Source: an uncultured Anaerolineaceae bacterium
Lineage (GTDB): Bacteria > Chloroflexota > Anaerolineae > Anaerolineales > UBA4823
Assembly (NCBI GenBank): GCA_964606085.1
Contig: CAZSFD010000001.1
Span: 199,795 to 263,794 of the forward strand
DNA: 64,000 nucleotides
Direction: 5' to 3'
In this document: in pieces, positions 1 to 38,218 of the stretch
How positions within the stretch are numbered: position 1 is the stretch's first letter
Layout of the letters: each line of letters opens with the position of its first letter
Made by a program: the position numbers and the translations under genes
Notes under the pieces: generated by a model
Told to the model about the DNA's origin: nothing
The model's database searches: none
The model's input: the letters and a program-made list of their open reading frames with translations, nothing else

Positions 1-485
1 GCCCGGGCGGCGGCCCCAAGGCCGGGTTCTTTGCCCTGCCCGATGTGGACGATGAAGTGCTGGTGGTCTTTGAACATGGCGATTTCAACCACCCCTTCGT
101 GTTGGGCGGCATCTGGAATGGCAAAGACCCCCTGCCGCCGAAATCGGACAGCGTGGGCGGCAATGAAATGCCGCAGGTGCGCACATGGTGTTCGCGCAAG
201 GGGCATCGCATCACCATGTACGATAATGCCGATAATAAAATCGAAATCGTCACCGCCGGCAACCAGCAAATTGTGATGGATGACGCCGGCAAGAAAATCA
301 CGGTCAAGACCAGCGGCGGCCTGTCGGTTACGATGGATGACAATGGCTCCAAAGTGAGCATCCAAAGCGGCAGCGAGGTGGAGATCAAAGCGGGCAGCAA
401 TCTCAAAATTCAGGCCAATGGCAACATAGACCTTCAGGCCAGCGGCATGGTCAACATCAAGGGAGCGACGGTCAACCTGAACTGA
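1..485 (+). CDS. VgrG/gp5-like central spike protein of a contractile injection system (C-terminal part; 5' end is upstream of the window)
   Basis: Frame is open from base 3 (PGGGPKAGFFALPDVDDEVLVVFEHGDFNHPFVLGGIWNGKDPLP), the conserved gp5/VgrG OB-fold end. It is followed by a beta-helix-like short-period repeat (KIEIVTAGNQQIVMDDAGKKITVKTSGGLSVTMDDNGSKVSIQSGSEVEIKAGSNLKIQANGNIDLQASG). Confidence 0.8.
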   Translation, partial: PGGGPKAGFFALPDVDDEVLVVFEHGDFNHPFVLGGIWNGKDPLPPKSDSVGGNEMPQVRTWCSRKGHRITMYDNADNKIEIVTAGNQQIVMDDAGKKITVKTSGGLSVTMDDNGSKVSIQSGSEVEIKAGSNLKIQANGNIDLQASGMVNIKGATVNLN

Positions 486-501: not shown

Positions 502-891
502 ATGCCCACACTGGTTACCAACGGCGCCATGCTGACGTGCAGCTTTGGCGTAGCCCCCAGTACGCTGACGGTTGTGCCAGCCAGCATGGTCAACGCCAGC
601 AACCTGCCGGCGGCAACGACGATGGATAACATTGCCATGACCAATATCATGCCTTTTGGCATGTGTACCACCCTCACCAACCCCCAGGTGGCTTCGGCCA
701 CGACTGCCGCATCGGGCGTGCTGACGCCGCAGCCGTGCATCCCCGTCACCACCGCCCCCTGGACGCCCGGCTCGCCCACCGTGATGATCGGTAAAAAGAT
801 GGCGCTGCAAAACACCTGTCAACTGATGTGTGCCTGGGGAGGCGTCATCACCATCACCAACGCCGGGCAGTTTACCGTCAATGTCCCCTAA
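502..891 (+). CDS. DUF4280-type (PAAR-like) spike tip protein
   Basis: 129 aa with GGAGG RBS 6 nt upstream. Pattern VTNGAMLTCSFG..P..L.V..., NIMPFGMC, PQPCIPVTTAPWTPGSPTVMIGKKMALQNTCQLMCAWGGVITITNAGQ matches the conserved Cys/Gly layout of DUF4280. Sits directly after VgrG. Confidence 0.75.
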   Translation: MPTLVTNGAMLTCSFGVAPSTLTVVPASMVNASNLPAATTMDNIAMTNIMPFGMCTTLTNPQVASATTAASGVLTPQPCIPVTTAPWTPGSPTVMIGKKMALQNTCQLMCAWGGVITITNAGQFTVNVP

Positions 892-895
892 AACC

Positions 896-924
896 GTAGC
901 GCAAATTTGAGATTTGCGCCACAA
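896..924. repeat. GCGCAA-type REP-like hairpin (gcgcaaat-ttgag-atttgcgc, followed by cacaa)
   Basis: Stem 899-906 / 912-919 read directly. Related copies at 29509-29549 and 44378-44465 share (t/g)agcgcaa...ttgcgccaca. Confidence 0.6.
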
Positions 925-942
925 TCAAAGAATGGATACATT

Positions 943-1344
943 ATGACCCATGAAATTATCGGGCGCGGCTGGACTTTCCCCCTGAAAATCAATTCGCAGG
1001 GCGGCATTGCGCTGACTTCTGAACGCAATGAGATCGAACAGGCGATGGTGATCATCCTCTCCACGGAGATCGGCCAGCGGGTGATGCGGCCCACCTTTGG
1101 CAGCCGCCTGCACGAACTGGTCTTCGCCCCCAACAACCAGCATACCCTGGCCCTGGCCCGGCGCTACACCGAAGAAGCCCTGCGCATGTGGGAGCCGCGC
1201 ATCACCAACCTCGACATCAAGGTCAGGCCCGACGAAACGCCCGCAAAAGAGTCGCGCCTGCTGATCGAAATTAACTACCAGGTGAAAGCGACCAACGATA
1301 AGCGCAGCCTGGTTTATCCGTTTTATTTACTGCCTGAAGAGTAG
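943..1344 (+). CDS. GPW/gp25-family baseplate wedge protein
   Basis: MTHEIIGRGWTFPL...IALSERNEIEQAMVIILSTEIGQRVMRPTFGSRLHELVFAPN is the gp25/GPW core motif. I prefer the ATG at 943 because the ORF-track start at 907 is a TTG inside the repeat hairpin. Confidence 0.85.
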   Translation: MTHEIIGRGWTFPLKINSQGGIALTSERNEIEQAMVIILSTEIGQRVMRPTFGSRLHELVFAPNNQHTLALARRYTEEALRMWEPRITNLDIKVRPDETPAKESRLLIEINYQVKATNDKRSLVYPFYLLPEE

Positions 1345-1409: not shown

Positions 1410-3416
1410 ATGCCCCTTCCCACCCCCAAACTCGATGACCGCCGCTTTCAAGACCTGGTTGATGAGGCCAAGAAACGCATCCCCCATTACTGCAAGGAGT
1501 GGACCGATCACAACGTCAGCGATCCGGGCGTGACGATGATCGAACTGTTCGCCTGGCTGACCGACCTGACCCTCTTTCGCCTGAACCAGGTGCCTGACCT
1601 GCATTACATCCGCTTTATGGATATGCTGGGTATCACCCTGCAGGAACCGCTGCCGGCCCAGACCGATGTCACCTTTTGGTTGACCAAACCACAAGAGACC
1701 GTCGCCCTCATCCCCGCCGGCACCGAAGTAGCCAGCACACAGACCGAAACCGAGCCATCCATCGTGTTCACCACCGACACCGATTTTCGCGTCCACCCGC
1801 CGCAATGGAACTGTGCCTTCTCCGAAATCACCGGTGAAGACCGCAGCAAGCATTTCGTCAGCCACAATCTCAAACGCCTGCAAACCGGTTTCGAGGGCTT
1901 CGAGGTGTTTTCGCGCACACCACTAATGGACGACGCACTCTATTTTGGCTTCGAAAACGATCTCAGCCATCACATTTTGGGCCTGGAGTTAGAATGCGAC
2001 CCGGCCGGCGGCACCGGCATTGACCCATCCTTCCCCCCTTATGTGTGGGAAGCCTCCACCGGCAGCCTGAAAGAAGCCTGGCAACCCTGCATCGTAGACA
2101 GCGATACCACCAAGGGCCTGAACCATCCGGGCAAAATTATTCTGCACCTGCCGCGCGTGGGCAAGAGCCAGATCAACAACAACGAAATGTTCTGGCTGCG
2201 CGTGCGCATTCAGGAAATTACCCCCGCCCTCAAACGCAATCACATGCAACCCTACCGCCTGACACCACGCATCGAAAAGGTGGCCATCGCCGCCTGGGGC
2301 GGCAGTGTGCCAGCCACACACGCCCAACTGATCAGCCAGGAAATGTTGGGGCGCAGCGATGGTTCGCCGGGGCAGCGCTTCCAGTTGCAAATGCCGCCCG
2401 TTCTAAAGCGCCGGCCAGGCGAAACCCTGGTGCTGCAACTCGAAGGCGAAGCTCCACAACCCTGGAAAGAAGTGCCCGATTTCGCCGATTCTGGCGCAGA
2501 AGACCGCCATTTCTGCCTCGACGGCGTCAGCGGTGAGGTGCGTTTTGGGCCAGCCATCCGCCAGCCCGATGGCACGATCAAGCTGTATGGCGCCATTCCG
2601 CCGCGCAGCGCCAATATCGTCTTCGAGCGCTACCGCCACGGCGGCGGACAAGAAGGCAACGTGGAAGCCGGTGTGCTCAACACGCTCAAGACCGCCATCC
2701 CCTACATCGAACGCGTGGTCAACCGCAAACCGGCCTATGGCGGCGTGGATGCCGAAACGCTCGAAGCTGCTATGGCGCGTGTGCCAGCGTTGCTGCGCTC
2801 ACGCCAGCGTGCGGTGACCGAAGCCGACTACGAATTTCTGGCCCGCCAGGCCCTGCCGGGGGCCATTGGCCGGGTGAAATGCCTGCAACCGCGTGCCGCC
2901 GAGGGCCGCGTGGCCGGGCGGGTAGACCCCAGCCTGGTGTATGTCCTGGTCATCCCGCGCATGAACTTTCCCGCGGGCCGCCTCGACCGCGAACTGCTCA
3001 AAATCAAACCGGAGGACAAAGCCACCCTGACCGCCTACCTGGATGAGCGCCGCCTGTTGACCACCCGCGTGGATGTGCGCGACCCGGCCTATTATTGGGT
3101 TTCGATAGAAGTGCAACTGCGCGCCGCCCCCAACGCCCAACCGACGAAAGTGGAGGCCGACGTGCTGGCGCGCCTGTACGCCTTCATCAACCCCCTCACC
3201 GGCGGGCCAGAGAAAAATGGCTGGCCCTTTGGCCGCTCCATTTACCTTTCAGACATTTATCCCTGCTTGCAGGGCATCGCTGATGTGTTGTTCGTGCGCA
3301 GCGTGGAAATGTACCCCGTACAAGAGGATGGCCGCCGCGGCAATCCGGTGGAATCCATCGAACTGGTGGCGCATGGCGTGGTCGCTTCAGCCTTGCATCA
3401 TGTGACGTTCGTATGA
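1410..3416 (+). CDS. Baseplate J (gp6/gpJ, Afp11-like) baseplate assembly protein
   Basis: 668 aa, GGAGG RBS. N-terminus LDDRRFQDLVDEAKKRIPHYCKEWTDHNVSDPGVTMIELFAWLTDLTLFRLNQVPD is the conserved opening of CIS baseplate-J proteins. Position after gp25 fits the Afp/PVC gene order. Confidence 0.85.
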   Translation: MPLPTPKLDDRRFQDLVDEAKKRIPHYCKEWTDHNVSDPGVTMIELFAWLTDLTLFRLNQVPDLHYIRFMDMLGITLQEPLPAQTDVTFWLTKPQETVALIPAGTEVASTQTETEPSIVFTTDTDFRVHPPQWNCAFSEITGEDRSKHFVSHNLKRLQTGFEGFEVFSRTPLMDDALYFGFENDLSHHILGLELECDPAGGTGIDPSFPPYVWEASTGSLKEAWQPCIVDSDTTKGLNHPGKIILHLPRVGKSQINNNEMFWLRVRIQEITPALKRNHMQPYRLTPRIEKVAIAAWGGSVPATHAQLISQEMLGRSDGSPGQRFQLQMPPVLKRRPGETLVLQLEGEAPQPWKEVPDFADSGAEDRHFCLDGVSGEVRFGPAIRQPDGTIKLYGAIPPRSANIVFERYRHGGGQEGNVEAGVLNTLKTAIPYIERVVNRKPAYGGVDAETLEAAMARVPALLRSRQRAVTEADYEFLARQALPGAIGRVKCLQPRAAEGRVAGRVDPSLVYVLVIPRMNFPAGRLDRELLKIKPEDKATLTAYLDERRLLTTRVDVRDPAYYWVSIEVQLRAAPNAQPTKVEADVLARLYAFINPLTGGPEKNGWPFGRSIYLSDIYPCLQGIADVLFVRSVEMYPVQEDGRRGNPVESIELVAHGVVASALHHVTFV

Positions 3417-4414
3417 AAGGGGGCGTTGTCATGGCTAACCCCACCTACACCCACATTTTCCACATCAGCGGGCCCGAAGAAACGACCAGCCAGTTTCAAA
3501 TCCCCATCGGCATCACCATCATCAGCCGCCAGGAGGGGGTGGGCCTGCACCTGGATAGCAAGTTCATCTCGCGCCGCCACGCCCGGCTGGAGTGCATTGA
3601 CACCGAATGCCATCTCACCGACCTGGGCAGCGAAAACGGCTCCTACATCAACGGTGAACGGCTAGAAGCGCAAACCCCCTACCTGCTGCAACACAACGAT
3701 CAGATCAAAATTGGGCCATTCACCCTGGTGGTCGAAAAAATAGCGCTTGCCGCGGTCGAAGAAGTGGCCGAAACGCCCGCCCCGCCGCCCGAACCCGTGG
3801 CCGCCGAAGAACTGCCCGGCGTGGCTGTGGCCGAAACACCCCCGCCGCCGCCACCGCCCAGCGAACCCCCCACCGCCGAGGCCCAGCCACCTGAAAAAGA
3901 TGCCTTCCTGCCGCCGCCCGGCCTGGGCCTCAAAAGCACCCGCCTGATCAATTACCTGCCAGGCATTTACTTGCCAGGCATTTACCAAAGCGATCTGCTG
4001 GCGCGCTTCCTGGGCATTTTCGAGGCCATTCTGACCCCCATCGAATGGAACATAGACAATTTCGACCTGTATCTTTCTCCCAAAACCTGCCCAAGCACGT
4101 TTTTACCCTGGTTGGCAACCTGGTTTGAGATAGAATTTGATGAAACCTGGAGCGAGGCCAAACGCCGCCAATTTTTGCAAGAAGCCCACCAAATCTACGC
4201 CGGACGCGGCACCCCGCGAGCGCTGCGCCGCACACTCGAAATTTACACCGGCCTCACCCCCACCATTGATGACACCAGCAACGATTTGGAGCCACATACC
4301 TTTCGTGTCTTCTTACCCGTACCCGAAAAAGATGTGCAGCGCACCACCATCGAAGCCCTGATCAACGCCCACAAACCGGCGCATACGGCTTATGAACTTC
4401 ACTTTCAAGAATAA
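3413..4414 (+). CDS. FHA domain fused to a phage tail protein I (gpI/Afp12-type) baseplate domain
   Basis: N-terminal FHA signature (ISRRHARLECIDTECHLTDLGSENGSYINGERL), a Pro-rich linker, then C-terminal YLPGIY..LLARFLGIFEAILTPIEWNIDNFDLYLSPKTCPSTFLPWLATWFEIEFDETWSEAKRRQFLQEAHQIYAGRGTPRALRRTLEIYTG (gpI-type domain). The ATGA overlaps the gpJ stop. An alternative start at 3431 has an AAGGGGG RBS. Confidence 0.75.
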   Translation: MKGGVVMANPTYTHIFHISGPEETTSQFQIPIGITIISRQEGVGLHLDSKFISRRHARLECIDTECHLTDLGSENGSYINGERLEAQTPYLLQHNDQIKIGPFTLVVEKIALAAVEEVAETPAPPPEPVAAEELPGVAVAETPPPPPPPSEPPTAEAQPPEKDAFLPPPGLGLKSTRLINYLPGIYLPGIYQSDLLARFLGIFEAILTPIEWNIDNFDLYLSPKTCPSTFLPWLATWFEIEFDETWSEAKRRQFLQEAHQIYAGRGTPRALRRTLEIYTGLTPTIDDTSNDLEPHTFRVFLPVPEKDVQRTTIEALINAHKPAHTAYELHFQE

Positions 4415-6554
4415 GCTCAAATCTCCTTTCGCACGGGAATTCCTCGTCATTCACATCCCCGATGGCCCCACCCGCCACGTTTCCCTGCGCGCCGCAACGC
4501 TCGAAATGGGTCGGGCAGAGGCCAACCAGATTGTCATAGACCATCCCTCCATCTCGCGCCGCCATGCCCGCCTCACCCGCCAGGGCGATGGCCTGCTGAT
4601 CGAAGACCTGGCCTCAGCCAATGGCACCTGGGTCAACGACCAGACCCTGCAACCCTACAAACCAGCCCCCATCGCCCGCGGGCAGTCCTTCTGGGTCGGA
4701 AAAGTAGAAGTTACCTACAAGCATCAAGATTTTACACTGCCGATAGTGGGCGTGTTCTTTGCGCTGCTATGCTGCTGCGCCGCCGTCCAACTGATCATCC
4801 GGCTGATCCCGCAGCCCGATGTGTTCGCCTGCGATGCACCCTCCATTTTGATCGTCCAGCCAGACCCTAACCAACGTCCCGCCGCAGCCGACGAACCCGC
4901 CCGGCCCACCGCCACCCGCCCCCCCACCGGGCCAACCCCCGCCGAAACGCAAGCAGCCGGCGAGCCAACCTCCGCCCCGCTCATCTTCACCGATGCGCTG
5001 ACCTACACCGTGCAAAACTTCTTCGATCTGCCCTTCCCCTACGCCGGCGACCGCAGCGAGTGTACCTACGGCACGCTCGAAGAGTTCCAACAGGCCAATC
5101 AGCGGCGCTACCTGGGCGGGCGCATCAACAGCTTCTTCGACCACTTCTACCCCAAATATCCCTACGACCCCGAACGCCAGGGCCGCGAAAGCCCCGACCC
5201 GCCCGAAGCCAAAAACCTGCTGCTGTTCACCGGCGAACTGAGCGCCAACGACGATTACAGCGGCCACCCCGGTTACGATTACTCGTATGAATACACCACC
5301 AGCGAGGGAAAGTACACCACACCCGTGTGCGCGGCCGCCAATGGCATCATCGCCGCGGTCGGAGGTGACGAGCAGGTTGGGCTGTATGTCAAGATCAATC
5401 ACTTCGCCAGGGTCAACGGCGTCAGCTATCGCTATCAAACCTTTTACTTGCACCTCAAACAAGATGAATTTTTCGATCAGATGCTCGGCCGAGAAGGCCA
5501 AATCATCAACGTCCACGAGCGCATTGGCACCATCGGCAACACCGGGCCATCCACCGGGCCGCACCTGCACTTCGAGGTGCGCGCCGATCTGAACAACGAC
5601 AATCGCTTCGATCTGAGCGAAGTGGTGGACCCCTATGGCTACATCCCCAGCCGCGAATACCCGGTGGACAAATGGCCGCGTCCCAGCGACTACCTGTGGA
5701 TTCATCCGTGGGGAGTTTTCCAGTCTATTGAAGGCAATGCCCAAAGCAACGCCGGCGCCGAAAAAGGCATCGGAGGCGAGTTTGCGGCGGCGGTGAGCCG
5801 GCCCGCCCGTCTGTGCGCTCCGCCCAACGCTCTGCCATCGGGCGGGTTGATCAGCTTCTCCATTTCGCTCTCCCCGCCACCGGCAGATGGGCTGATCAGC
5901 ATCGGTCGAGCGGCGATCATTGCCGTGATGAACCAGGGGCAATTTATCGAAACCTTCGCCGAGCCAGTGCGGGTGATGATCCCCTTTCCCAAAACCGAAC
6001 TGGATTACGTCAAAGATAACGAACGCCTGCGCATCTACCGCCTGCAAACCACCCAACAAGCCGATAAAGATGTATCGGTGTGGATTGCGCTGCAAACCGA
6101 ACTGGATCGCGAACATGCCGTCGCCATGGCCTACACCGACAGCCCCGGCCAATTTGCCCTGCTGGGCGAAGCCACCCAAGATACCTACCCCCCCACCACC
6201 GAGATCACCCTGGATGGCCCACAAAGCCCCGAGGGCACCTTCTACGCCAATGTCACGGTCAGCTTAGCGGCCACCGACGGCCAAAGCGGGGTAGACTCGA
6301 TCTATTACAGCCTGGATGGCCGCAACTGGCTGCTGTATAGCGAGCCATTTGTGATCTCGCCCAACGGCATCCCCGAAGCACTGCCAGAGACAGAAGATGA
6401 ATCTTTTCTGGGCGGGCCGGGCCGCTTTCAGGTGCTGGCCTCAGCCACCGATAAGGCCGGTAACAGCGAGGAGCAGCTCAAAGGCAAGCCGGCAGCCGTT
6501 TACTTCATCATTGACCCGCGCAAAGAACCCCAAAGAGGCTATCACTGGAGGTAA
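4392..6554 (+). CDS. FHA - TM - M23 (lysostaphin-type) metallopeptidase membrane protein
   Basis: FHA motif (GRAEANQIVIDHPSISRRHARLTRQGDGLLIEDLASANGTWVND) and one hydrophobic helix (LPIVGVFFALLCCCAAVQLIIRLI). M23 zinc motifs HxxxD (GHPGYDYSY) and HxH (GPHLHFEV). C-terminal beta-sandwich-like motif (YYSLDGRNWLLYSEPFVI). Confidence 0.8.
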   Translation: MNFTFKNKLKSPFAREFLVIHIPDGPTRHVSLRAATLEMGRAEANQIVIDHPSISRRHARLTRQGDGLLIEDLASANGTWVNDQTLQPYKPAPIARGQSFWVGKVEVTYKHQDFTLPIVGVFFALLCCCAAVQLIIRLIPQPDVFACDAPSILIVQPDPNQRPAAADEPARPTATRPPTGPTPAETQAAGEPTSAPLIFTDALTYTVQNFFDLPFPYAGDRSECTYGTLEEFQQANQRRYLGGRINSFFDHFYPKYPYDPERQGRESPDPPEAKNLLLFTGELSANDDYSGHPGYDYSYEYTTSEGKYTTPVCAAANGIIAAVGGDEQVGLYVKINHFARVNGVSYRYQTFYLHLKQDEFFDQMLGREGQIINVHERIGTIGNTGPSTGPHLHFEVRADLNNDNRFDLSEVVDPYGYIPSREYPVDKWPRPSDYLWIHPWGVFQSIEGNAQSNAGAEKGIGGEFAAAVSRPARLCAPPNALPSGGLISFSISLSPPPADGLISIGRAAIIAVMNQGQFIETFAEPVRVMIPFPKTELDYVKDNERLRIYRLQTTQQADKDVSVWIALQTELDREHAVAMAYTDSPGQFALLGEATQDTYPPTTEITLDGPQSPEGTFYANVTVSLAATDGQSGVDSIYYSLDGRNWLLYSEPFVISPNGIPEALPETEDESFLGGPGRFQVLASATDKAGNSEEQLKGKPAAVYFIIDPRKEPQRGYHWR

Positions 6555-9121
6555 TGATCATGCCCGATCTGGTTGGACAAGCTCTGAATCGCTATCAGAT
6601 GGTCAGTTTGCTGGGCGAAGGCGGCATGGGGGCGGTGTACAAAGCCCAGGATACCGCCCTCAAGCGCGAAGTGGCCGTCAAGGTGCTGCACAGCCATTTC
6701 GCCCGCCAGCCCGATTTTCGCGAACGCTTTTTGCAAGAGGCGCGCACCGCCGCCCGCCTGGATCATGCCGGCATCGTCAAGGTGTTCGATTTCGGCGAGG
6801 CGCAAGGGCAGCTTTACATTGTGATGGAACTGATCGCCGGGGAGAACCTGCAAGATTTACTCACCCGTCAATGGGGGCAAGGACAGGGCTTAACGCCGCA
6901 GGAAGCCAGCCAACTGACCCGCCAGATTGCTTTGTCGCTCGACTATTTGCACAAACAGGGCATTTTGCACCGCGACATCAAACCGGCCAATATCATGCTC
7001 AAGCCCGAATCGCTCACCGGCCTGCCCTACCGCCCGGTGTTGACCGACCTGGGCCTGGCGCGCCTGCTGGATGGCCCACGCCTGACCCAGGATGGCGGCT
7101 CGATGGGCACGCCGGCCTATATGTCGCCAGAGCAGGCCAGCGGCATGCCCACCGACGCCCGCTCGGATGTCTATTCGCTGGGCATTCTGCTCTTTGAACT
7201 GGCTACCGGGCGGCTGCCGTTTCCCATTCACACCATCACCGAGGCCATCCGCTACCACACCCGCGAAGTTCCCCCCTCGCCGCGCACCTTCCGCCCCGAG
7301 TTACCCCAAAACCTGGAACAGGTAATCTTGCGCGCCATTGCCAAAGAACCGGCCAGCCGCTTTGCCGATGCCGCCGCCCTGGCCCAGGCGTTGGAACAGG
7401 CCATCCTGACCTTTCCACCGCCGGGCATGCGCGCCGCGGCCAGCCCGTCCATGCCCGCCAGCGCCCCGGCCGGGCAGCAGCGCCCGCCAGCCGCCAAAGC
7501 GCCAGGCAGTGCTTCCATCCCGCCCGATACCAACGGCATCCAGGTCATCGCCAAAAATCACCCCAACCGGTTCATCCCGATCAAGCCCAAAATCAAAGAC
7601 ATGGTCGAGATGTCCATCGGACGCGACGAAAGCGCCGATATCTGCCTCGACAGCCCCGGCGTCTCACGCAAGCATGCCAAGCTGACCTACGATGGCAGCG
7701 AGTTTTATCTCACCGACCTGAACAGCACCAACCGCACTTTCCTGGGCGATACCGAGCTGTTGCCCGGCGTGGCCGAGCGCTGGAACCCCGAAAAGGTGGC
7801 CCGCATTGGCACGTTTGCCTTGCAACTGGTGTTGGCCGGGCAAAAAGCCGCCCCCATCCAGCCCCCTTCCCAGCCGCCGGGCGAACGCGCTGGCTTCCGG
7901 CGCACCAACGGCAGCCTGGTGCCGGTCAGCCCCGGCTTTACGCAGATGGAAAACCGCATTTGGGTTGACCTGGAAGAAGAAGACCTGACCGTGGAGGCCG
8001 GCGGACGGGTGCCGCTGACGGTCAACCTGCTCAACCAGGGCGGCTTCGTAGACCAGTTCCACGTCTCGGTCAAGGGTATTCCGGCTGCCTGGTATTCGGT
8101 GCAGCCCCCGGTCGTCAACCTGATGCCCGGCGACCAGGCCACCGCGCAGATCACCTTTCACCCGCCGCGCAACCCCAGCAGCCAGGCCAAAGCCTACCCG
8201 CTGGAAATTCGCGTGACGCCCGAAAAGCCGCCCAAGAAAGTCAGCACCGCCACTGGCACGCTGACCGTCTTGCCCTTCTACCAATCGCGCAGCGAAATGC
8301 ACCCGATGAAAATCAAAGGGCGCAAACCGGCGCGGGTGACCATTCAAAACCAGGGCAACATCGCCGATACCTACACCGCCTACCCCGCTGACCGGGCCGA
8401 CGAACTGATCTTCGACCCGCCGCAAAAGCAGGTGCAGGTGGCCGAAGGCCAGCAGGCGGCGGTCGAATTTCGCGCCCGCCCGCGTGCCACGCGCATCTTC
8501 GGCATGAAGCAGACCCATTCCTTCACCATCCAGGTCAGTTCGGCGCAAGGCGGCAACCCCACCCAACACATGGGCGAGTTCACCAGCACGGCCCTGATCC
8601 CGCCCTGGCTGCCGATCTTCTTGATGGGGTTTTGCGCCCTGCTGATGCTGGCTGCCTCGCAACTGATCCCCCTGGTGATGCCCAAGACAACGCCCACCAG
8701 CACCGGCGTAATCGTCTTGACGGTGATCCCCGATACCCTGACGCCCTCCCCCCTGCCCGATACCCCCACCGCCCCACCCAGCGACACTCCCACCCTGCTA
8801 GAACTGTGCGCCGGCGCACCCGAACCGCGGGTGGAGAAAAATGGCCTGGGGCGTGTCGGCGAAGACGACCCCCGCCCACTGCGCGTGCGCAAAACCGCCG
8901 AATACACCGGCGATAACGACGAAAACGTGATCGCCAAACTGCCGCCCGGGACGCAATTCCGCATCCTGGATGGTCCCGAATGCGTGCAAACGCCAACGGG
9001 ATCGAAGGTGCTGATGTGGAAAATCGAAGTCATCGGCGGCATGGTCTTCGACGATGGCACCACCCAGGGCTGGGTGGTTGAAGCAGATAGCTCTGGCTAT
9101 TTCATCGAACCGTTGAAATAA
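6554..9121 (+). CDS. Ser/Thr protein kinase with internal FHA domain, two beta-sandwich repeats, TM helix and SH3b-like ectodomain
   Basis: Hanks kinase motifs (LGEGGMGAVYKA, VAVKVL, HRDIKPANIML, DLGLAR, GTPAYMSPEQ). FHA motif (SIGRDESADICLDSPGVSRKHAKLTYDGSEFYLTDLNSTNRTF). TM helix (LIPPWLPIFLMGFCALLMLAASQLIPLVM). The GGAGG RBS favours the ATG at 6560. Confidence 0.85.
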   Translation: MIMPDLVGQALNRYQMVSLLGEGGMGAVYKAQDTALKREVAVKVLHSHFARQPDFRERFLQEARTAARLDHAGIVKVFDFGEAQGQLYIVMELIAGENLQDLLTRQWGQGQGLTPQEASQLTRQIALSLDYLHKQGILHRDIKPANIMLKPESLTGLPYRPVLTDLGLARLLDGPRLTQDGGSMGTPAYMSPEQASGMPTDARSDVYSLGILLFELATGRLPFPIHTITEAIRYHTREVPPSPRTFRPELPQNLEQVILRAIAKEPASRFADAAALAQALEQAILTFPPPGMRAAASPSMPASAPAGQQRPPAAKAPGSASIPPDTNGIQVIAKNHPNRFIPIKPKIKDMVEMSIGRDESADICLDSPGVSRKHAKLTYDGSEFYLTDLNSTNRTFLGDTELLPGVAERWNPEKVARIGTFALQLVLAGQKAAPIQPPSQPPGERAGFRRTNGSLVPVSPGFTQMENRIWVDLEEEDLTVEAGGRVPLTVNLLNQGGFVDQFHVSVKGIPAAWYSVQPPVVNLMPGDQATAQITFHPPRNPSSQAKAYPLEIRVTPEKPPKKVSTATGTLTVLPFYQSRSEMHPMKIKGRKPARVTIQNQGNIADTYTAYPADRADELIFDPPQKQVQVAEGQQAAVEFRARPRATRIFGMKQTHSFTIQVSSAQGGNPTQHMGEFTSTALIPPWLPIFLMGFCALLMLAASQLIPLVMPKTTPTSTGVIVLTVIPDTLTPSPLPDTPTAPPSDTPTLLELCAGAPEPRVEKNGLGRVGEDDPRPLRVRKTAEYTGDNDENVIAKLPPGTQFRILDGPECVQTPTGSKVLMWKIEVIGGMVFDDGTTQGWVVEADSSGYFIEPLK

Positions 9122-9127
9122 GCAATC

Positions 9128-10381
9128 ATGGATTACCCCATGCAGCCACAACAAATTGATCGCTACCAGGTACAGGCAGAAATCGCCCGCGGCGGCATGG
9201 CGATTATTTACCTGGCCTACGACCCGCAAAACCAGCGCCAGGTGGCAATCAAGGTGTTGCCGCGCGAATACTTGATGGATCGTCAATTTCGCGTGCGCTT
9301 CCAACGCGAGATCGAGATCATGGTAGCCATCCGGCATTCGGGCATCGTGCCGATTTATGGCTACGGGCAATACCAGGGCCAGCTTTACCTGGTGATGCGC
9401 TACATGGCCGGCGGCTCGCTGGATGACCGCCTGCAAAAACAGGGCAGCATGTCGTTGGCCGAAACCGCCGCGCTGATCGAACAGATTGCCCCCATTCTCG
9501 ATTTCGCCCATTCCCAGGGGATCATTCACCGCGATTTGAAACCGGGCAACATCTTGTTCGATACCCAGGGCAAAGCCTTTATCAACGATTTTGGCATCGC
9601 CCGGCTGACCGAGCAATCGAACTATGCCGCGCTGACCGGCAAAGCGCTGATCGGCTCACCGGCGTACATGAGCCCCGAACAGGGGCGCATTGGCCTGAAT
9701 GTGGATGCCCGCAGCGACATTTACTCGGTGGGCGCGATGGTTTTTGAGATGCTGACGGGGCAGCTTCCGTATGACGCCGAAAGCGCAATGAAGCTGGTAA
9801 TGAAGCATCTGACGGACCCCATCCCGAACATCCTGGCGTTGAACCCGGCCTTACCCCCGTCGTGCCAGGCGATCATCGAAAAAGTGCTGGCCAAAGAGCC
9901 TGAGCAGCGTTACGCCAGCGTTTCAGAACTGGCCGCAGCCCTGCGCCAGGCGGTTAATGCGGGCAGCCGGGCCGCCGCAGCCTACCCATCTACCCCGCCG
10001 CAAGGGCCGCGCCAGCCCCGGGACGCCGCGCCGCCGGTAAGCCGACCAGCCAGCCAGCCGGTTAGCCGACCAGCCCCGGGGTCAGCGAAGCCAGCCGGCA
10101 TACGACTGCCCTCGTTTCTCAATTCATTTCGCCACGCCATCTTGCAGCAGTTTCGCATGCCGCGGCTGCTCGGTGGGCCAGCGCTGCCTTACATCACCCT
10201 GCCATCCTTCCTGCGCCCCATCACCAGCGCCCTGGGAATTTCGAGTACGATCAGCCTGCCCGGCAACAAGCTCTGGTTAGGGCTGGCCGTGCTGATCGCC
10301 GTGGCGGTGCTGCTCGTTCTGTGCGGCGGGGTGATGGCAAGCTGCTACATCCTTTTTCGTATTTTTGCCACGCCTATCTAA
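9128..10381 (+). CDS. Ser/Thr protein kinase, C-terminally membrane anchored
   Basis: ARGGMAIIYLA, VAIKVL, HRDLKPGNILF, DFGIAR, GSPAYMSPEQ. Pro-rich spacer and terminal hydrophobic helix (LWLGLAVLIAVAVLLVLCGGVMASCYILF). Confidence 0.85.
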   Translation: MDYPMQPQQIDRYQVQAEIARGGMAIIYLAYDPQNQRQVAIKVLPREYLMDRQFRVRFQREIEIMVAIRHSGIVPIYGYGQYQGQLYLVMRYMAGGSLDDRLQKQGSMSLAETAALIEQIAPILDFAHSQGIIHRDLKPGNILFDTQGKAFINDFGIARLTEQSNYAALTGKALIGSPAYMSPEQGRIGLNVDARSDIYSVGAMVFEMLTGQLPYDAESAMKLVMKHLTDPIPNILALNPALPPSCQAIIEKVLAKEPEQRYASVSELAAALRQAVNAGSRAAAAYPSTPPQGPRQPRDAAPPVSRPASQPVSRPAPGSAKPAGIRLPSFLNSFRHAILQQFRMPRLLGGPALPYITLPSFLRPITSALGISSTISLPGNKLWLGLAVLIAVAVLLVLCGGVMASCYILFRIFATPI

Positions 10382-10403
10382 TCACTTGCAAAGGGTTATC
10401 ACC

Positions 10404-12665
10404 ATGAAAAACGCTTCACTCGTCCACCGCCTGATACTCGCGACATTTGCCATCCTGCTCCTGCTGCTGCCGCACCCCACCGCCGCCCAGAGCGAGGTGC
10501 GAGCGTACATCAGCAGTGTAGATTGCTCTGCCTTTCCCACGATCAGCCTGACCGTGCGGGCGGTGGATGCGCAAGGACGGGTGATCACCGATAACCTGGA
10601 TACCGCCTCGTTTGCCCTGTTCGATAATGCCACCCAGGTGACCCAACCGGCCGTTATGGCTACCGAGACGGGGGCAAAGCACGTCATCTTTTCCGTTGAC
10701 CGGCGCGGCGAAAACACCAACCTGGAAAAATACCAGGCGGCGATCCGCAATATCATGAGCGAATTTACCAGCCAGTATGTGATTGACGACACCGACATCG
10801 TCAGCATCGTCTCGCACATCTCTGGCAGCAAACCCGATGTGGTGCTGCAACCCACCAGCAACAAAACCGACGTGCTGAATGCCATCAGCGCGCTGTCCTT
10901 CGCCCGCATCAGCGGGACAAAAAGCGACTTAAGCGGGCTGGAGGCCGTTTTTAACGATCTGGTGACACAAAAACCCGGGCGGCGAAACACGGTCATCTTC
11001 CATTTCAGCCGCTTTCTCGAAACCCCCTCCGCTCCCCTGCAACAGGTAGACCCGGCCAAGAACCTGGGCGCCAAAATGGCCAGCGAAAATATCCGCGTCT
11101 ACACCTTCCAGACCGAAACATCTGGCGACGCGCGCTTTTACCGCGCCTTTCAAGAACTGGCCGCCAGCAGCCAGGGCGCTTACCTGCTGATTGATAAACC
11201 CGGCTACGAAGGCGAACTGGCCCGCATCTTCCGCGAGGTCGAACAGGGCAGCAAGGTCTTCCGGCTGCAATTCACCAGCACCGCATACGTGGCCGACCAC
11301 ACCATCAGCCTGGCCGCCCCCGGCGCAGGCCCCGAACGGGCCATGGACTCACGCACTTGCATCGGCATAGACATTCAAGACCCCCAGGTCGCTTTCGATT
11401 ACCCGCCCAACAGCCCCGGCCTGAAAATCCAGTTGAAGCCCGACGACACCTCCATCACCGTCCGGGCGCATGTAGATTGGCCCGATAAAAAGCCACGCAC
11501 AATAACCACGGCGGAGTTATTGGTGAACGGCACGGTCATCGAAACCAAAACCGATCTGCCGCCCACCGACCCCCTGTATTTCATTGTCAGCACAGACGAT
11601 CTCCTGGCCTCCAAGTCGCTGGCGAACATTGCCCTCGAAGTGCGCGTGGCCGATGCCTGGGGGCGCAGCGCCTCCAACTGGGTCAGCTTCGACCTCAGCG
11701 CCGCGCCGACCCCGGTCGTCACACCCACGGCAGCGCCCCGGCCAACCACGGAAGGGCCGGTAATCGTGGTTGCGCCTGGCGCGTGTGATGAAGGCTTATC
11801 GGTCAATTGCATCAAAGCGTGGGTGATCTCCAACTGGATTTTATTGCTGATCCTGGTGGTGGTCGGTGGGATGTTCCTGGTAATGTTCATCTTGCTCATT
11901 GCCACCCGCCACCAACTGGCCAAACTCTCTGCCCCGGCGCGCGAGGCCATTGGCAAACGCGCCGCCCAGGTGCGCGACCAGGTGCGCAAAACCCTGCTGG
12001 GCGGGGCCTCGCACCAGCAGCAAGCCGTGGCCTACCTGAATGTGCTGGTGGCGCGCAGCGACCGCGTTGGCTCGAAAATCGAAATTTACAACAACCGCAC
12101 CACCCTCGGGCGCGACCCCTCGCTGACCGATGTGCAGCTCTACAACCCCGAAGATAAAACCAGCGTCAGCGGCCTGCACTGCACCATTTTTTACGACCCC
12201 GGCCAGGGCAAATTCTTCATCACCGATGATAACTCAACCAATGGCAGCTTCCTGAACGGCAAGCGCCTGCCCTCCAACGAGCCGCACGAACTGAAAGAGA
12301 ATGATGAGATTACGCTGGGCGATATTTACCGGCAAGGCGCCAAGCTGCGCTTCGAACTGGCCGCCGGGCAGCCGGCGCACTCCATCGAAGATGAAATGAT
12401 CCCTATCGAAAATGACTTCAATGTAGATTTGGATGGCTCGGGGTCTTACGCCAACGAAGTGACCCAGGCCGCCGTCGATTCGATGCCGCCACCGCCCCCT
12501 CCCCAACCCAAGAAAGAAATGTCTGATGAAACCATCCCCGGCTATCGCGACGAAGACATCCTTTCTTACCCTGAACAACCCGCTGCGCCCCCGCCAGGCC
12601 GCCCGGCCAACAAACCGCCGCAGAAAAAAGGCAAAGATAAAAGCTGGATAGATGACCTGAGCTAA
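10404..12665 (+). CDS. Signal peptide - vWA-like ectodomain (degenerate MIDAS) - TM - cytoplasmic FHA protein
   Basis: N-terminal signal (LILATFAILLLLLPHPTAAQS). Beta-sandwich plus vWA-like layout (ISSVDCSAFPTISLTVRAVDAQGRVI... VIFSVDRRGEN in place of DxSxS). TM helix (WILLLILVVVGGMFLVMFILLIA). C-terminal FHA (TTLGRDPSLTDVQLY...VSGLHCTIFYDPGQGKFFITDDNSTNGSFLNGKRL). Start taken at the ATG after the upstream stop. Confidence 0.7.
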   Translation: MKNASLVHRLILATFAILLLLLPHPTAAQSEVRAYISSVDCSAFPTISLTVRAVDAQGRVITDNLDTASFALFDNATQVTQPAVMATETGAKHVIFSVDRRGENTNLEKYQAAIRNIMSEFTSQYVIDDTDIVSIVSHISGSKPDVVLQPTSNKTDVLNAISALSFARISGTKSDLSGLEAVFNDLVTQKPGRRNTVIFHFSRFLETPSAPLQQVDPAKNLGAKMASENIRVYTFQTETSGDARFYRAFQELAASSQGAYLLIDKPGYEGELARIFREVEQGSKVFRLQFTSTAYVADHTISLAAPGAGPERAMDSRTCIGIDIQDPQVAFDYPPNSPGLKIQLKPDDTSITVRAHVDWPDKKPRTITTAELLVNGTVIETKTDLPPTDPLYFIVSTDDLLASKSLANIALEVRVADAWGRSASNWVSFDLSAAPTPVVTPTAAPRPTTEGPVIVVAPGACDEGLSVNCIKAWVISNWILLLILVVVGGMFLVMFILLIATRHQLAKLSAPAREAIGKRAAQVRDQVRKTLLGGASHQQQAVAYLNVLVARSDRVGSKIEIYNNRTTLGRDPSLTDVQLYNPEDKTSVSGLHCTIFYDPGQGKFFITDDNSTNGSFLNGKRLPSNEPHELKENDEITLGDIYRQGAKLRFELAAGQPAHSIEDEMIPIENDFNVDLDGSGSYANEVTQAAVDSMPPPPPPQPKKEMSDETIPGYRDEDILSYPEQPAAPPPGRPANKPPQKKGKDKSWIDDLS

Positions 12666-12674
12666 CGCTTGCAT

Positions 12675-13598
12675 ATGGCAGAAACGTACATTGGCAATTT
12701 CGTGGTCGAAAAAACGCTCTCGAAGAGCGGTATGTCGTATATCTACCTGGCGCGCCTGGCCGAACAACCCAACTACAAAGTGGCCCTGAAGATTCACCTG
12801 GAAAGCGAAGGCCCGCGCAACACCTATCAAGATTTACTGCGCCACGAAGCCGAGCATCTGGCCCATTTCAGGCATCCCAACATCATGCGCGTTTTCCCCC
12901 TGCAACTGCCCACCGGCAAGGTGGTCTATTGCGCCCGCGCCACCGATTTACCCGAAAACCCGTGGTATTTCACCATGGAATATATCCCCGGCGGTGATCT
13001 CAGCAAATACATCAAGAACTTCACCAAAATGCCCATCCCCTGGATCATCGAATTTTTCTACCAACTGCTCATCACCGTCAAATACATTCATCAAATGGGA
13101 TACGGACATTGCGACCTGAAGCCGGAGAACATCCTGCTGCGTGAGCCGCCCAGCCCCCTGCGCACGCCCCAACCCATCCTGACCGACTTCGGCACGGCGC
13201 AGCGCGTGGAAGACATCATTGCCCAGCCGACCCGCTCCCTGCGCTACTCGCCGCCCGAAATCATCATGGCGTACACCCGCAAAGACATCGAAGCCAAAAA
13301 TTTCCCCCTGTATGCCGCCAAAATAGACATCTGGTCGTTGGGCGCGCTGCTCTTCGAGCTGCTCACCGGGCAGCAATTGTTCAGCCAGCGCAAAGAAGCC
13401 GAAATCACCTCGTCCATTTTGCGCGGCGAACTGCGTAAAATTCAAACGCTGCGCCGCGAGGCGCACGAATCGCTCGATAAAGTGCTCAGCGTCATGCTGC
13501 AAACACAGCCAGAAGAGCGCCCCGAAATTGACGACATCATCGAGGCTATCGAAGAGCGCATCAGCAGCGTCAGGCCGCCGCGCATCCCGCTGGCCTGA
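12675..13598 (+). CDS. Soluble Ser/Thr kinase-like protein (non-RD, degenerate Gly loop)
   Basis: VALKIH, GHCDLKPENILL (HCD instead of HRD), DFGTAQ, YSPPEI. The glycine loop reads LSKSGMSYIY. No TM segment. Confidence 0.75.
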   Translation: MAETYIGNFVVEKTLSKSGMSYIYLARLAEQPNYKVALKIHLESEGPRNTYQDLLRHEAEHLAHFRHPNIMRVFPLQLPTGKVVYCARATDLPENPWYFTMEYIPGGDLSKYIKNFTKMPIPWIIEFFYQLLITVKYIHQMGYGHCDLKPENILLREPPSPLRTPQPILTDFGTAQRVEDIIAQPTRSLRYSPPEIIMAYTRKDIEAKNFPLYAAKIDIWSLGALLFELLTGQQLFSQRKEAEITSSILRGELRKIQTLRREAHESLDKVLSVMLQTQPEERPEIDDIIEAIEERISSVRPPRIPLA

Positions 13599-13631: not shown

Positions 13632-15773
13632 GTGGCGAAAATAATCATCGATTCACATTATGACATCGGCGGACACCGCGAAGTATACGAAGACCGCGTG
13701 CGGGCGCGCCCCGTGACCACCGCCGCCGGGCTGAAATTGATGGTGGCAGCCGTGGCCGACGGCGTGGGCGGCGAAAACAAAGGCGAGCGCGCCTCGCAAA
13801 CCACCATAGACGCCCTCTTCAACTACCTGGAAAAAAGCCGCGAAACCGCCCTGCCCGCCTTGTTGACCCAGGCCGTGCAATATGCCAACAAAGCCACCTT
13901 TCAACTGCAACGCGAAACCAGCGGCGCCAGCACAACCCTGGCCGTGGCCGTGGTAGATGAGGCCACGGCAAAGCTGTACATTGCCAACGTCGGCGACAGC
14001 CGCATCTACCTGTGCCGCAACCGCAAGCTGACCCAATTGACCATAGACCACTCGTGGGCAACCGTCATGGCCTGGCAAGGCAAAATCAGCGCCGAAGCCG
14101 CCCGCGACCACCCACGCGCCAACGTCCTCATGCGCGCCATCGGGCCGCGCGAGCAGGTGGAGGTAGACCTGGGCTTCTACGTTGGCACCAGCGACTACGC
14201 AGAAGCCAACGAACGCGGCCAGGGCGGCCTGCCCTTGCTCGATGGCGACGCCATCCTGGTCTGTTCTGACGGCCTGATCAAAGACTCGCCCCAAACCGGC
14301 GAACCCCTGATCAGCAAAGAAGAGATCATTCGCACCGTTACCGAAAAAGAAGGCAAGAAGGCCGCTCAGGAGTTGGTTTCGTTTGCCCTGGGCCGCGGCC
14401 CCGATGACAACATTTCGGCCGCCCTGATCCAGATGCCCGACCGCTGGCGCACCTGGCGGGCGCGCCGCCCGATGCTGATCGCCGGAGGTGTCATCTTTGC
14501 GCTGGCAATTGTTCTGTGCGTGGCCGTCGCGGCTTTGCTCATTACCCAAAGAACGCTGCAAACGCTCTCGCAAGAGCAACAAGCGGCTACGGCGCAGGCC
14601 GCAACCGTGGCCGCCTACACCGCTACACCTTCCGATACCCCCACGCCCTCCAACACACCCACCGTCACCTTCACCCCATCGCCCACGCTCAAACCCTTCG
14701 TGGCCGGGCAGGCCGGCGTCATCGTCAGTCAAAATGGCGATGCCTTCTTCCTGAAATCACCCCTGCAGGCCAAAGAACAGGAGGACATGGTCTTGCTGAT
14801 TTTCCACCGCGAAGGGTACAGCAGCAACCCGGGCTATCTCCACGCCCTGCCGGGAAGCCTGTTACAGATGAATACCATTGATGACCAGGCCTATCAGTTC
14901 TTCGTCTCGCAAGCGAGCCATGTGTTTGTCGAAAACGGCAGTTACGCCCTGGGCGAACTGCAGCTTGCCCGCTCCAATCTCACTTTGCGCGTCGAAGGCT
15001 CGTGCCTGGCATTAGATTACCCCGCAAACGAGCGCGCCATCGTCAGTTGCTATGCCGGCACCTGCACCTACGACGCCCTGGGCGGAGGTTCTGGCAGCAT
15101 CGCCCCCGGCACACAACTGCTCTTCTCCGGGCCAGACCTCGACGCCGGCGAGGCGCAAGCCATCCCCGAAGCCGAGGCGCGCCAGTGGGCCAGCCGCCTG
15201 CCGGTGGGCAGCCTGGCCTACGATTGCGCCAACCAATATATCCCCACGCCCACACCCACCCGCCCGGCCGCCAAACCTCCCACCCAAAAAGAACCCGATG
15301 AGCCGGGCCACAATCCCGATCCCACCAACACGCCCATCCCTGCCTCCAACACCGCCAAACCGCCAAACACCAACACACCCAGACCGGCAAACACCAACAC
15401 GCCCGCCAAAGCCCCCACCAACACAACCGCCGCCACGAAAACCACCGCCCCCACCCAAACACCCAAACCCGCCACGGCGACGACAACCCCCAAGGCAAGC
15501 ACCCCCACCGCCACCGCCAAGAACACCGCCACACGAACCGCCGTCCCCAGCCCTACACAAACCCCGCAACCCACGGCCACACCAACGTCACAACCATCCA
15601 ACACCCCCGAAACACCCACCGAAGTTCCACCTACCGAAGTTCCACCCACCGATGTCCCCCCCACCGACGTTCCCCCAACTGCTACCACTGAAGCGCCGCC
15701 TCCTATTGAAACGGATGACGTGCCAAAACCAAGCGATACACCTACCACAGACGAACCGCCGAAAGATGGATAG
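13632..15773 (+). CDS. PP2C-family Ser/Thr phosphatase - TM - ectodomain with Thr/Pro-rich tail
   Basis: GTG start with GGGAGA RBS. PP2C motifs (YEDR, AVADGVGGENKGERAS, NVGDSRIYL, VCSDGL, DDNISA). TM helix (MLIAGGVIFALAIVLCVAVAALLI). The tail has 15-bp tandem repeats encoding TEVPPTEVPPTDVPPTDVPP (about 15615-15680). Confidence 0.85.
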   Translation: MAKIIIDSHYDIGGHREVYEDRVRARPVTTAAGLKLMVAAVADGVGGENKGERASQTTIDALFNYLEKSRETALPALLTQAVQYANKATFQLQRETSGASTTLAVAVVDEATAKLYIANVGDSRIYLCRNRKLTQLTIDHSWATVMAWQGKISAEAARDHPRANVLMRAIGPREQVEVDLGFYVGTSDYAEANERGQGGLPLLDGDAILVCSDGLIKDSPQTGEPLISKEEIIRTVTEKEGKKAAQELVSFALGRGPDDNISAALIQMPDRWRTWRARRPMLIAGGVIFALAIVLCVAVAALLITQRTLQTLSQEQQAATAQAATVAAYTATPSDTPTPSNTPTVTFTPSPTLKPFVAGQAGVIVSQNGDAFFLKSPLQAKEQEDMVLLIFHREGYSSNPGYLHALPGSLLQMNTIDDQAYQFFVSQASHVFVENGSYALGELQLARSNLTLRVEGSCLALDYPANERAIVSCYAGTCTYDALGGGSGSIAPGTQLLFSGPDLDAGEAQAIPEAEARQWASRLPVGSLAYDCANQYIPTPTPTRPAAKPPTQKEPDEPGHNPDPTNTPIPASNTAKPPNTNTPRPANTNTPAKAPTNTTAATKTTAPTQTPKPATATTTPKASTPTATAKNTATRTAVPSPTQTPQPTATPTSQPSNTPETPTEVPPTEVPPTDVPPTDVPPTATTEAPPPIETDDVPKPSDTPTTDEPPKDG

Positions 15774-36758: not shown

Positions 36759-36784
36759 GTAGGGCGAAATTAATTTCGCCCTAC
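36759..36784. repeat. 26-bp perfect palindrome GTAGGGCGAAATTAATTTCGCCCTAC (copy 2)
   Basis: Identical to 31317-31342. Overlaps the stop codon (36781-36783, minus strand) of the carotenoid oxygenase gene. Confidence 0.9.
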
Positions 36785-38205: not shown

Positions 38206-38218
38206 GGAGAGTGTTTCG

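Follow-up and report, generated by a model that had tools for sequence, protein, structure and literature searches.

In a 64,000-nucleotide stretch of DNA from an uncultured Anaerolineaceae bacterium (contig CAZSFD010000001.1, positions 199,795 to 263,794; the whole stretch is hereafter called the window), we find that a peripheral baseplate subunit of a contractile injection system (CIS) carries a predicted phosphothreonine (pThr) reader at its N-terminus. The gene lies on the forward strand as one unbroken open reading frame (ORF) of 333 residues, 3413-4414, and its product is tripartite: after a canonical FHA domain comes a Pro/Ala/Glu linker, and then a complete wedge protein of the baseplate, of Cis12/gpI type. 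An earlier note, made by inspection of the sequence, had proposed this composition, and Pfam bears it out, matching FHA (PF00498) to residues 44-101 of the 333-residue reading (E 1.2e-16, 61.3 bits against a cutoff of 20.7) and Tail_P2_I (PF09684) to residues 211-322 of the same reading (E 1.5e-18, 67.4 bits against a cutoff of 20.6), with the Pro/Ala/Glu-rich linker between them; the peptide strings quoted in that note are all found in the ORF. The protein also scores above the NCBIfam cutoffs of TIGR02242 (90 bits against 51.85) and of TIGR01634, tail_P2_I (52.4 bits against 30.05). It falls below the cutoff of the NCBIfam family CIS12_fam, NF053768 (83 bits against 860), matching only positions 475-573 of a 715-position model, and we therefore place it outside the long-Cis12 subfamily, with the short Cis12 of the type found in the Streptomyces coelicolor system, CIS-Sc. 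Databases call such proteins either "phage tail protein I" or "FHA domain-containing protein".

The true start of the gene is probably ATG 3431 (Met7 of the 333-residue reading, giving 327 residues) rather than ATG 3413. A Shine-Dalgarno-like GAAAGGGGG at 3415-3423 stands seven bases 5' of ATG 3431, the N-termini of the closest homologues align at Met7 (13 rows), and the NCBI/Logan copy of the protein (P0001, 327 residues, 100% identical) starts at this codon; a JGI gene call (P0271, 333 residues) begins at 3413. Given that ATG 3431 is the probable start, the gene most likely begins 14 nucleotides past the gpJ stop without overlapping it, and the overlap previously claimed for the two genes (ATGA at 3413) is probably wrong. 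Residue numbers of the fusion protein, such as R33 and S47, are counted from Met7 in what follows.

An AlphaFold2 model built from a 70-sequence alignment divides the protein along the same lines. Residues 1-106 form a beta-sandwich with predicted local distance difference test (pLDDT) values above 95 and nine DSSP strands of at least three residues, after which a low-confidence stretch runs from about residue 110 to about residue 170. The neck (residues 161-215), which includes a long helix at 188-215, is modelled with intermediate confidence (block means of about 59-77), and the alpha/beta core (220-327) is modelled confidently. The two folded domains are predicted independently of each other (predicted template modelling score, pTM, 0.45), and the FHA fold and the Cis12 fold expected of the two halves were each recovered by profile search and structure prediction. 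For the C-terminal half, assigned to the gpI type in the earlier note and matched here by Tail_P2_I and TIGR02242, the closest match of known structure is Cis12 from the baseplate of the S. coelicolor CIS: Foldseek ranks 9gtp_A first (E 9.5e-10; target-normalised template modelling score, TM(target), 0.52), and residues 180-323 align to residues 22-179 of the 190-residue 9gtp Cis12 (phmmer E 4.8e-13). Since the alignment covers the solved protein to this extent, the FHA domain and its tether have simply been added at the N-terminus of a Cis12 that is itself complete.

The tether is 54 residues long here and 38-96 (median 56.5) across homologues, in which its composition is 32% Pro, 14% Ala and 13% Glu. 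Identity across homologues is 28% in the tether, 46% in the FHA domain, 71% in the neck and 58% in the core. From polymer geometry, an extended Pro-rich tether of this kind could reach roughly 10-17 nm. Within the neck of the window protein, an in-frame 15-nucleotide tandem duplication at 3956-3985 (CTGCCAGGCATTTAC / TTGCCAGGCATTTAC) yields LPGIY-LPGIY in the most conserved motif of that region, YLPGIY; no other member of the 70-sequence alignment shows it, and the identical P0001 in the database has it as well.

Canonical FHA domains contact pThr through an Arg in the b3-b4 loop, a Ser-x-x-His in b4-b5 and an Asn in b6-b7. The corresponding pattern in the window protein is R33, S47-R48-x-H50 and S67-x-N69-G70, and R33, R48, H50, S67, N69 and G70 are invariant in 70 homologues, with S47 kept in 69 of the 70. 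The predicted fold superposes on FHA domains that bind pThr, with TM(target) values in Foldseek of 0.92 to Rv0020c FhaA (3po8), 0.83-0.90 to GarA and 0.82 to the FHA domain of DgcB with bound phosphopeptide. The Arg, Ser and Asn contact residues that the earlier note had required of this region are thus kept, and we conclude from sequence and model that the domain is a predicted pThr reader with intact contact residues. The window protein and its eight closest relatives have Ser for the canonical Gly32, just before Arg33, and Asp or Glu (Glu in the window) for the consensus Ser/Ala68, beside Asn69; in the alignment, Ser at position 32 is confined to this subclade, at 8 of 70 sequences. The two changes leave the core residues untouched and may alter specificity. 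A GarA-like self-inhibitory ETTS motif was also considered, in the string "PEETTSQ" at residues 15-21, and was rejected as a coincidence: it lies inside the FHA fold, in the b1-b2 loop, and is unconserved, the family consensus in that region being GPxxSxxF.

The fusion is not rare. Of the 120 nearest clusters at 90% identity, 118 contain both Pfam domains. When the Cis12 half alone was used to search 1.84 billion representatives, 4,499 relatives were returned, and a family hidden Markov model detects an FHA domain in 132 of the best 150 50%-identity representatives, which gives a positive answer to the earlier note's question of whether other Cis12 homologues carry an N-terminal FHA domain. 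Most of the remaining 18 are short proteins, and for at least three of the 18 the cluster also contains longer members; a few appear to be true FHA-less Cis12 proteins from Anaerolineae. A tandem double FHA precedes Cis12 in P0143, P0168/P0278 (L086:10001-11416) and P0197. A scan of 185,579 species genomes returned 99 loci with the fusion, and among the 80 of these that are listed all but one are named as Chloroflexota, the exception being a Zixiibacteriota metagenome-assembled genome (MAG). The listed loci are mostly from Anaerolineae-type MAGs (Ardenticatenaceae, Promineifilaceae, Anaerolineales), many of them of filamentous lineages. A Myxococcota MAG representative with the same gene order is a second source from outside the Chloroflexota; its protein, P0246 (L084:9791-11515), has 574 residues, of which about 350 lie between the FHA domain and Cis12. 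A phage origin of the combination was considered and rejected: none of 271 phage records covers 80% or more of the query, the matches being confined to residues 162-326, and IMG/VR returned no match. Among 8 million full texts we found no literature linking FHA domains with a CIS other than type VI secretion systems (T6SS), for which alone such papers were found. As far as the searchable literature goes, we thus came across no account of the FHA-Cis12 arrangement, which is built from the known FHA and Tail_P2_I/short-Cis12 families.

The genes upstream of the fusion identify the machine. The ORF at 1410-3416, previously named as gpJ-type, has the expected Baseplate_J match in Pfam and matches S. 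coelicolor Cis11 (9gtp) over its full length with E 5.9e-148, compared with E 9e-5 for AlgoCIS and E 5e-4 for Afp11. Cis9 likewise matches 9gtp Cis9 (E 1.4e-32), the gp25 of the thylakoid-anchored CIS (tCIS) being far more distant (E 6e-14). Judged by its proteins, then, the machine is a Streptomyces-type (lineage IId-like) CIS. In the window and in 45 of 60 related loci, Cis12 stands directly after Baseplate_J in the CIS cluster, and a full-length VgrG occupies the Cis8 position in related loci. Sheath, tube and spike genes lie upstream in L035, L082 and L083; the upstream genes of related loci comprise a sheath of the phage type (Phage_sheath_1), two tube paralogues, a CIS_tube-LysM protein, VgrG and PAAR. 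Downstream of Cis12 the window shows no tail-fibre gene, nor do the upstream 10 kb of L035; the upstream half of the window's own cluster, however, lies beyond the window edge, and other loci carry unannotated inserts.

Many of the related loci have variable genes inserted between Cis11 and FHA-Cis12 (L003:2358-9932 and L001:5964-9754, also L011, L025, L046 and L049), which include a 1293-residue protein with a C-terminal HNH nuclease match and proteins of 395 and 378 residues that match no family. These may be effectors or extra baseplate parts. A separate "orphan" type of FHA-Cis12 locus (L003, L007, L015 and others) was entertained and dropped when its upstream genes, of 395, 378 and 1293 residues, turned out to be the same inserts; such loci are probably the same cluster with a longer insertion, Cis11 lying beyond the 10-kb flank.

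Downstream of Cis12, six genes follow on the same strand with gaps or overlaps of at most 33 nucleotides, the first overlapping the end of the Cis12 gene by 23 nucleotides (Table 1). Together with the fusion gene they form one same-strand array that encodes three kinases, one PP2C phosphatase and four FHA domains, and hydropathy predicts that all FHA, kinase and phosphatase domains are cytoplasmic, with the M23 and VWA domains outside. The orthologue of the first kinase, 6554-9121, is the next gene after FHA-Cis12 in most loci, and the rule across related loci is VgrG-(PAAR)-gp25-Cis11-FHA-Cis12-kinase. Of 65 loci whose downstream sequence extends over 3 kb or more, 59 have a Hanks kinase following on the same strand, and in 45 it starts within 600 nucleotides. 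The external domain of this kinase varies between a PD40 beta-propeller, cadherin/Big_9 arrays and a short tail; the immunoglobulin (Ig)-like region of the window kinase gave nothing significant against the PDB with phmmer. The gene that precedes the kinase in the window, encoding an FHA domain, a transmembrane segment (TM) and an M23 peptidase, is conserved in the window subclade (L081, L087, L088), occurs also in L002 and L019, and is absent from most loci; its product could be a phospho-recruited wall-opening enzyme.

Table 1. Baseplate and signalling genes in the first 16 kb of the window, with the parts of the fusion protein
Feature	Position	Strand	Basis
VgrG-like spike gene (Cis8), 3' end; runs off left window edge	1..485	+	Phage_base_V
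DUF4280 PAAR-like spike tip protein	502..891	+	PF14107 E 3.3e-35
gp25-like sheath initiator (Cis9)	907..1344	+	PF04965 E 2.4e-25
Baseplate_J wedge protein (Cis11/gpJ)	1410..3416	+	PF04865, TIGR02243 448 bits
FHA-linker-Cis12 fusion gene (probable start; alternative ATG 3413)	3431..4414	+	Pfam, alignment, AlphaFold2 model
FHA domain, residues 1-106	3431..3748	+	Pfam E 1.2e-16, AlphaFold2, Foldseek, residue conservation
Pro/Ala/Glu-rich flexible tether, residues 107-160	3749..3910	+	low pLDDT, poor conservation
Cis12/gpI module, neck (residues 161-215) and core (216-327)	3911..4411	+	PF09684, TIGR02242, TIGR01634, 9gtp
FHA (cytoplasmic) - TM (residues 118-136) - M23 peptidoglycan endopeptidase (outside)	4392..6554	+	Pfam, hydropathy, NCBIfam MepM/ShyA-like
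Hanks Ser/Thr kinase - FHA - tandem Ig-like - TM (residues 690-708) - 145-residue external tail	6554..9121	+	Pfam, hydropathy
Hanks kinase with C-terminal TM anchor (residues 386-404)	9128..10381	+	Pfam, hydropathy
Signal/TM - VWA (outside) - TM (residues 492-510) - FHA (cytoplasmic)	10365..12665	+	Pfam, hydropathy
Soluble Hanks-type kinase	12669..13598	+	domain search, hydropathy
PP2C Ser/Thr phosphatase - TM (residues 286-304) - Thr/Pro-rich external tail	13632..15773	+	NCBIfam, hydropathy

Several further observations concern these neighbours and the rest of the window. The M23 protein, whose domain combination is unusual, has an OmpL47-type beta-barrel domain near its C-terminus. The external tail of the PP2C protein is about 400 residues long, the last 200 or so being of low complexity and rich in Thr, Pro, Ala and Asn (PTNT.. 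and PTDVPPTDVPP repeats). A promoter and terminator scan of 1-16.5 kb gave counts at shuffle expectation and was uninformative. Right after the CIS and signalling block, at 16096-18645, comes a UvrA-like protein that combines a UvrA DNA-binding domain with a pair of ABC ATPase domains, and at 36781-39751 on the reverse strand an RPE65-type carotenoid cleavage oxygenase adjoins a gene of flavin amine-oxidase/desaturase type. The rest of the 16-64 kb region holds ordinary-looking chromosomal genes (ABC exporters, MacB/FtsX, carboxyltransferase, OAD beta).

Loci in which the arrangement is altered serve as comparative controls. L082 has the same CIS cluster with an FHA-less Cis12 of 189 residues and with no kinase or FHA gene downstream. 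At L082:10593-20247 it encodes instead four or five consecutive membrane proteins, each starting with a tandem Ig-like module, homologous to residues 465-680 of the window kinase, followed by a TM; this paralogous Ig2-TM family, which is without annotation, provides candidate CIS membrane adaptors. Because an Ig2-TM membrane protein is present even in the kinase-less L082, we take it to be the conserved partner gene of Cis12 in this lineage. Comparison of the sequences thus indicates that, in the fusion clade, the Ig2-TM protein has gained a kinase and an FHA domain and Cis12 has gained an FHA domain; on the comparative side, the strongest clue to an interaction between the two products is this pair of gains. 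The orthologous kinases also supply a candidate for the phosphorylated site, in the form of a VSLMTQY...RG.S.L.EF motif within their otherwise variable kinase-FHA linker, the Thr of which is kept in 98% of 51 orthologues (e.g. L035:11066-14734). This Thr could be a docking site for the kinase's own FHA domain, for that of Cis12, or for both in competition.

The reading that we favour, and to which we would give about an even chance of being correct, is that the tethered FHA arms dock a cytoplasmic baseplate on phosphorylated membrane kinases or their substrates, and so gate its recruitment and firing. The wedge of CIS-Sc consists of two Cis11 and one Cis12 (PMC12237407), and if the stoichiometry of one Cis12 per wedge also holds here, each baseplate would present six FHA arms. 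The receptor kinase, with its kinase-FHA-Ig2-TM-external domain architecture, would sense an envelope or external cue and autophosphorylate on Thr; the FHA arms would bind the resulting pThr sites, whereby a free cytoplasmic particle would be recruited to the membrane and its firing licensed or triggered; and the PP2C phosphatase would reset the switch. In the window subclade, the FHA-TM-M23 peptidase would also be recruited to this phospho-cluster and make a local opening in the peptidoglycan. Such recruitment and licensing is what CisA, an unrelated adaptor, provides in Streptomyces, and the scheme would resemble in its logic PpkA, Fha1 and p-TssL of the T6SS. Docking of this sort, which the earlier note had already suggested, gains strength from the conserved adjacency of the kinase (59 of 65 loci) and from the close kinship of the machine to a cytoplasmic, fibre-less CIS that depends on a membrane adaptor. 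A more far-reaching version, which we consider unlikely, is that the six FHA arms are an inward-facing replacement for tail fibres, such that binding of several arms at once to a cluster of pThr-bearing receptor kinases at the cytoplasmic membrane would itself switch the baseplate and trigger sheath contraction, leading to regulated cell death or to outward injection in multicellular Chloroflexota. Were this so, Ser/Thr phosphorylation would be turned directly into mechanical contraction, a phospho-gated trigger that is not known for any CIS, and what sets off cytoplasmic CIS would be explained in molecular terms.

A number of observations weigh against docking on the kinase. L083 combines a Cis12 that lacks FHA with downstream genes for a kinase, a PP2C and free-standing FHA proteins, among them an FHA-Ig-TM protein, and L086 has a Cis12 with two FHA domains and no kinase within 10 kb downstream; since these loci show either element without the other, the link between FHA-Cis12 and the kinase is strong but not obligate. 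The VSLMTQY motif is absent from the window's own proteins, including the window kinase, and also from other kinases of the window subclade (e.g. L087), and where it does occur the kinase's own FHA domain could be its real reader. The subclade without the motif is the one with the changes at S32 and D/E68 in the Cis12 FHA domain, a coincidence that counts as just one evolutionary event and is on that account no more than suggestive. Finally, both the missing fibres and the cytoplasmic location of the particle are features that we infer from its relatives only.

Among the other explanations, the one we take most seriously, though we still think it rather unlikely, is that the FHA domain licenses assembly, either by bringing Cis12 to the kinase as a substrate or by binding a phosphorylated CIS subunit, such that assembly of the baseplate or wedge would need an active kinase, much as TagH/Fha1 promotes the assembly of the T6SS. 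FHA proteins are commonly both reader and substrate of their own kinase, as with TagH, a phosphorylation substrate of PpkA that also binds pThr on that kinase (PMC13584744). The genomic linkage of kinase and Cis12 fits assembly licensing as it fits docking, and a cytosolic role is conceivable for the soluble kinase (12669-13598). Yet the tether is Thr-poor (3.3% Thr) and offers no obvious array of phospho-acceptors, and the most tightly linked kinase is embedded in the membrane and carries the Ig2-TM module that is found beside Cis12 even in kinase-free loci, which indicates a membrane partner. Licensing and docking are in any case compatible rather than exclusive. We think it improbable that the arms recruit cargo or accessory proteins, capturing phosphorylated effectors, or else the FHA-TM-M23 or VWA-TM-FHA protein by way of bridging phospho-proteins, so that the baseplate would be loaded or equipped by them and not positioned. 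The variable genes found elsewhere between Cis11 and FHA-Cis12, including that for the 1293-residue protein with a C-terminal HNH nuclease, and the eCIS_core proteins that flank L086, would suit such a role, but the effector candidates vary from locus to locus while the kinase is constant, no conserved Thr motif was found in candidate cargo, and CIS cargo is normally carried in the tube lumen or on the spike, not at the wedge periphery.

We give similarly little credence to the possibility that the FHA domain is a phospho-independent structural module, a plain interaction or oligomerisation domain like those of the type III secretion YscD-type proteins or EssC, with the kinases regulating something else. 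It is true that Yop-YscD_cpl (PF16697) also matches this region (39.5 bits against a cutoff of 33.2), and that the window subclade has Ser before Arg33 and Asp or Glu68 beside Asn69. FHA-like domains that act independently of phosphorylation typically lose the Arg/Ser/His/Asn set, however, whereas here the set is kept in 70 diverged homologues even though the FHA domain is only 46% identical among them, and the best fold matches are FHA domains with bound pThr peptides. That a frameshift or an assembly error joined an FHA gene to a gpI gene, a danger which the earlier note had recognised, is next to impossible: the architecture is repeated across more than 130 sequence clusters, and the artefact is refuted by 118 of the 120 nearest clusters, 132 of the 150 representatives and 80 genome loci from independent assemblies. 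An identical protein comes from an independent Logan assembly, and the gene callers differ on the start codon only.

How a cytoplasmic CIS is recruited to the membrane and triggered is an open question, for which the FHA-Cis12 clade gives a chemically defined, testable link: the reader sits in a peripheral wedge subunit, and a candidate writer (the receptor kinase) and eraser (PP2C) are encoded alongside. If docking through pThr is correct, control by Ser/Thr phosphorylation would have arisen by independent convergence in the T6SS and in a CIS lineage of the phage-tail-like kind, and R33, S47 and N69 would constitute a point-mutable switch with which recruitment could be separated from firing. 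A swappable N-terminal Cis12 module that confers phospho-dependent targeting on the baseplate would also be a possible design principle for engineered CIS.

Several known systems can be set beside this one. With gpI of phage P2 and Tri2 of the R-type pyocin (PA0619; PDB 6u5b) the window protein shares the Tail_P2_I fold and the position beside gpJ, with 28-31% identity to proteins of P2-like phages over residues 162-326 and E 1.6e-3 to Tri2. In phages and pyocins the gpI wedge region connects to tail fibres. None of the 271 phage records, in contrast, covers the FHA domain or the tether. Closer by phylum is the Chloroflexota/Deinococcota lineage IId CIS of Roseiflexus, of which intracellular, unanchored particles have been imaged, in a paper that makes no mention of FHA, kinases or Cis12 (ISME J 2026, PMC12998442). 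It too is near the Streptomyces CIS, and for Chloroflexota the published descriptions are limited to particles inside cells. The thylakoid-anchored tCIS of Anabaena is described as having features distinct from those of both extracellular CIS (eCIS) and the T6SS (PMC8894136). It sets a precedent for a CIS attached, in a multicellular bacterium, to an internal membrane via baseplate-associated additions. Its anchors are reportedly structural extensions or accessory proteins rather than a phospho-reader.

The T6SS offers the nearest parallel in regulation. Here too the contractile machine is encoded together with a Hanks kinase, a PP2C and an FHA reader, and on the T6SS side binding of FHA to a phosphorylated membrane component activates that machine. 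PpkA of the T6SS has an outward (periplasmic) VWA domain, and the window likewise encodes an outward VWA in its VWA-TM-FHA protein (10365-12665), joined to a reader rather than to a kinase as in PpkA. Threonine phosphorylation in the T6SS involves PpkA/TagE, PppA/TagG and Fha1/TagH, with an interaction between p-TssL and Fha in Agrobacterium (PMC13584744). TagH is a free scaffold, however, while the window reader is fused to a structural baseplate subunit. Membership of the TagH family, TIGR03354, was considered and rejected, given that the window FHA-Cis12 scores 37 bits against a cutoff of 120.25, and no T6SS-specific Pfam family (TssJLM, TssBC, ClpV etc.) was found in the window ORFs or the annotated genes of related loci. 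We accordingly read the resemblance as one of functional logic, not of ancestry.

The closest comparison is with CIS-Sc itself, the nearest solved relative of the window Cis12 module, Cis11 and Cis9, in which the gene order is the same. CIS-Sc is cytoplasmic and without tail fibres, and its contraction depends on the bitopic membrane protein CisA (PMC12237407). In the window no tail-fibre gene is seen after Cis12, and a bitopic membrane protein is likewise encoded alongside. CisA is described as consisting of a solute-binding-like domain, a TM and an N-terminus that is disordered; both the way it touches the particle and the signal that activates it are unproven, and the paper makes no mention of a kinase, phosphorylation or FHA (Casu et al., eLife 2025, PMC12237407). 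Cis12 of S. coelicolor has 190 residues, without FHA domain or tether, whereas here the candidate adaptor is a kinase-FHA-Ig2-TM protein and the reader is on the baseplate itself.

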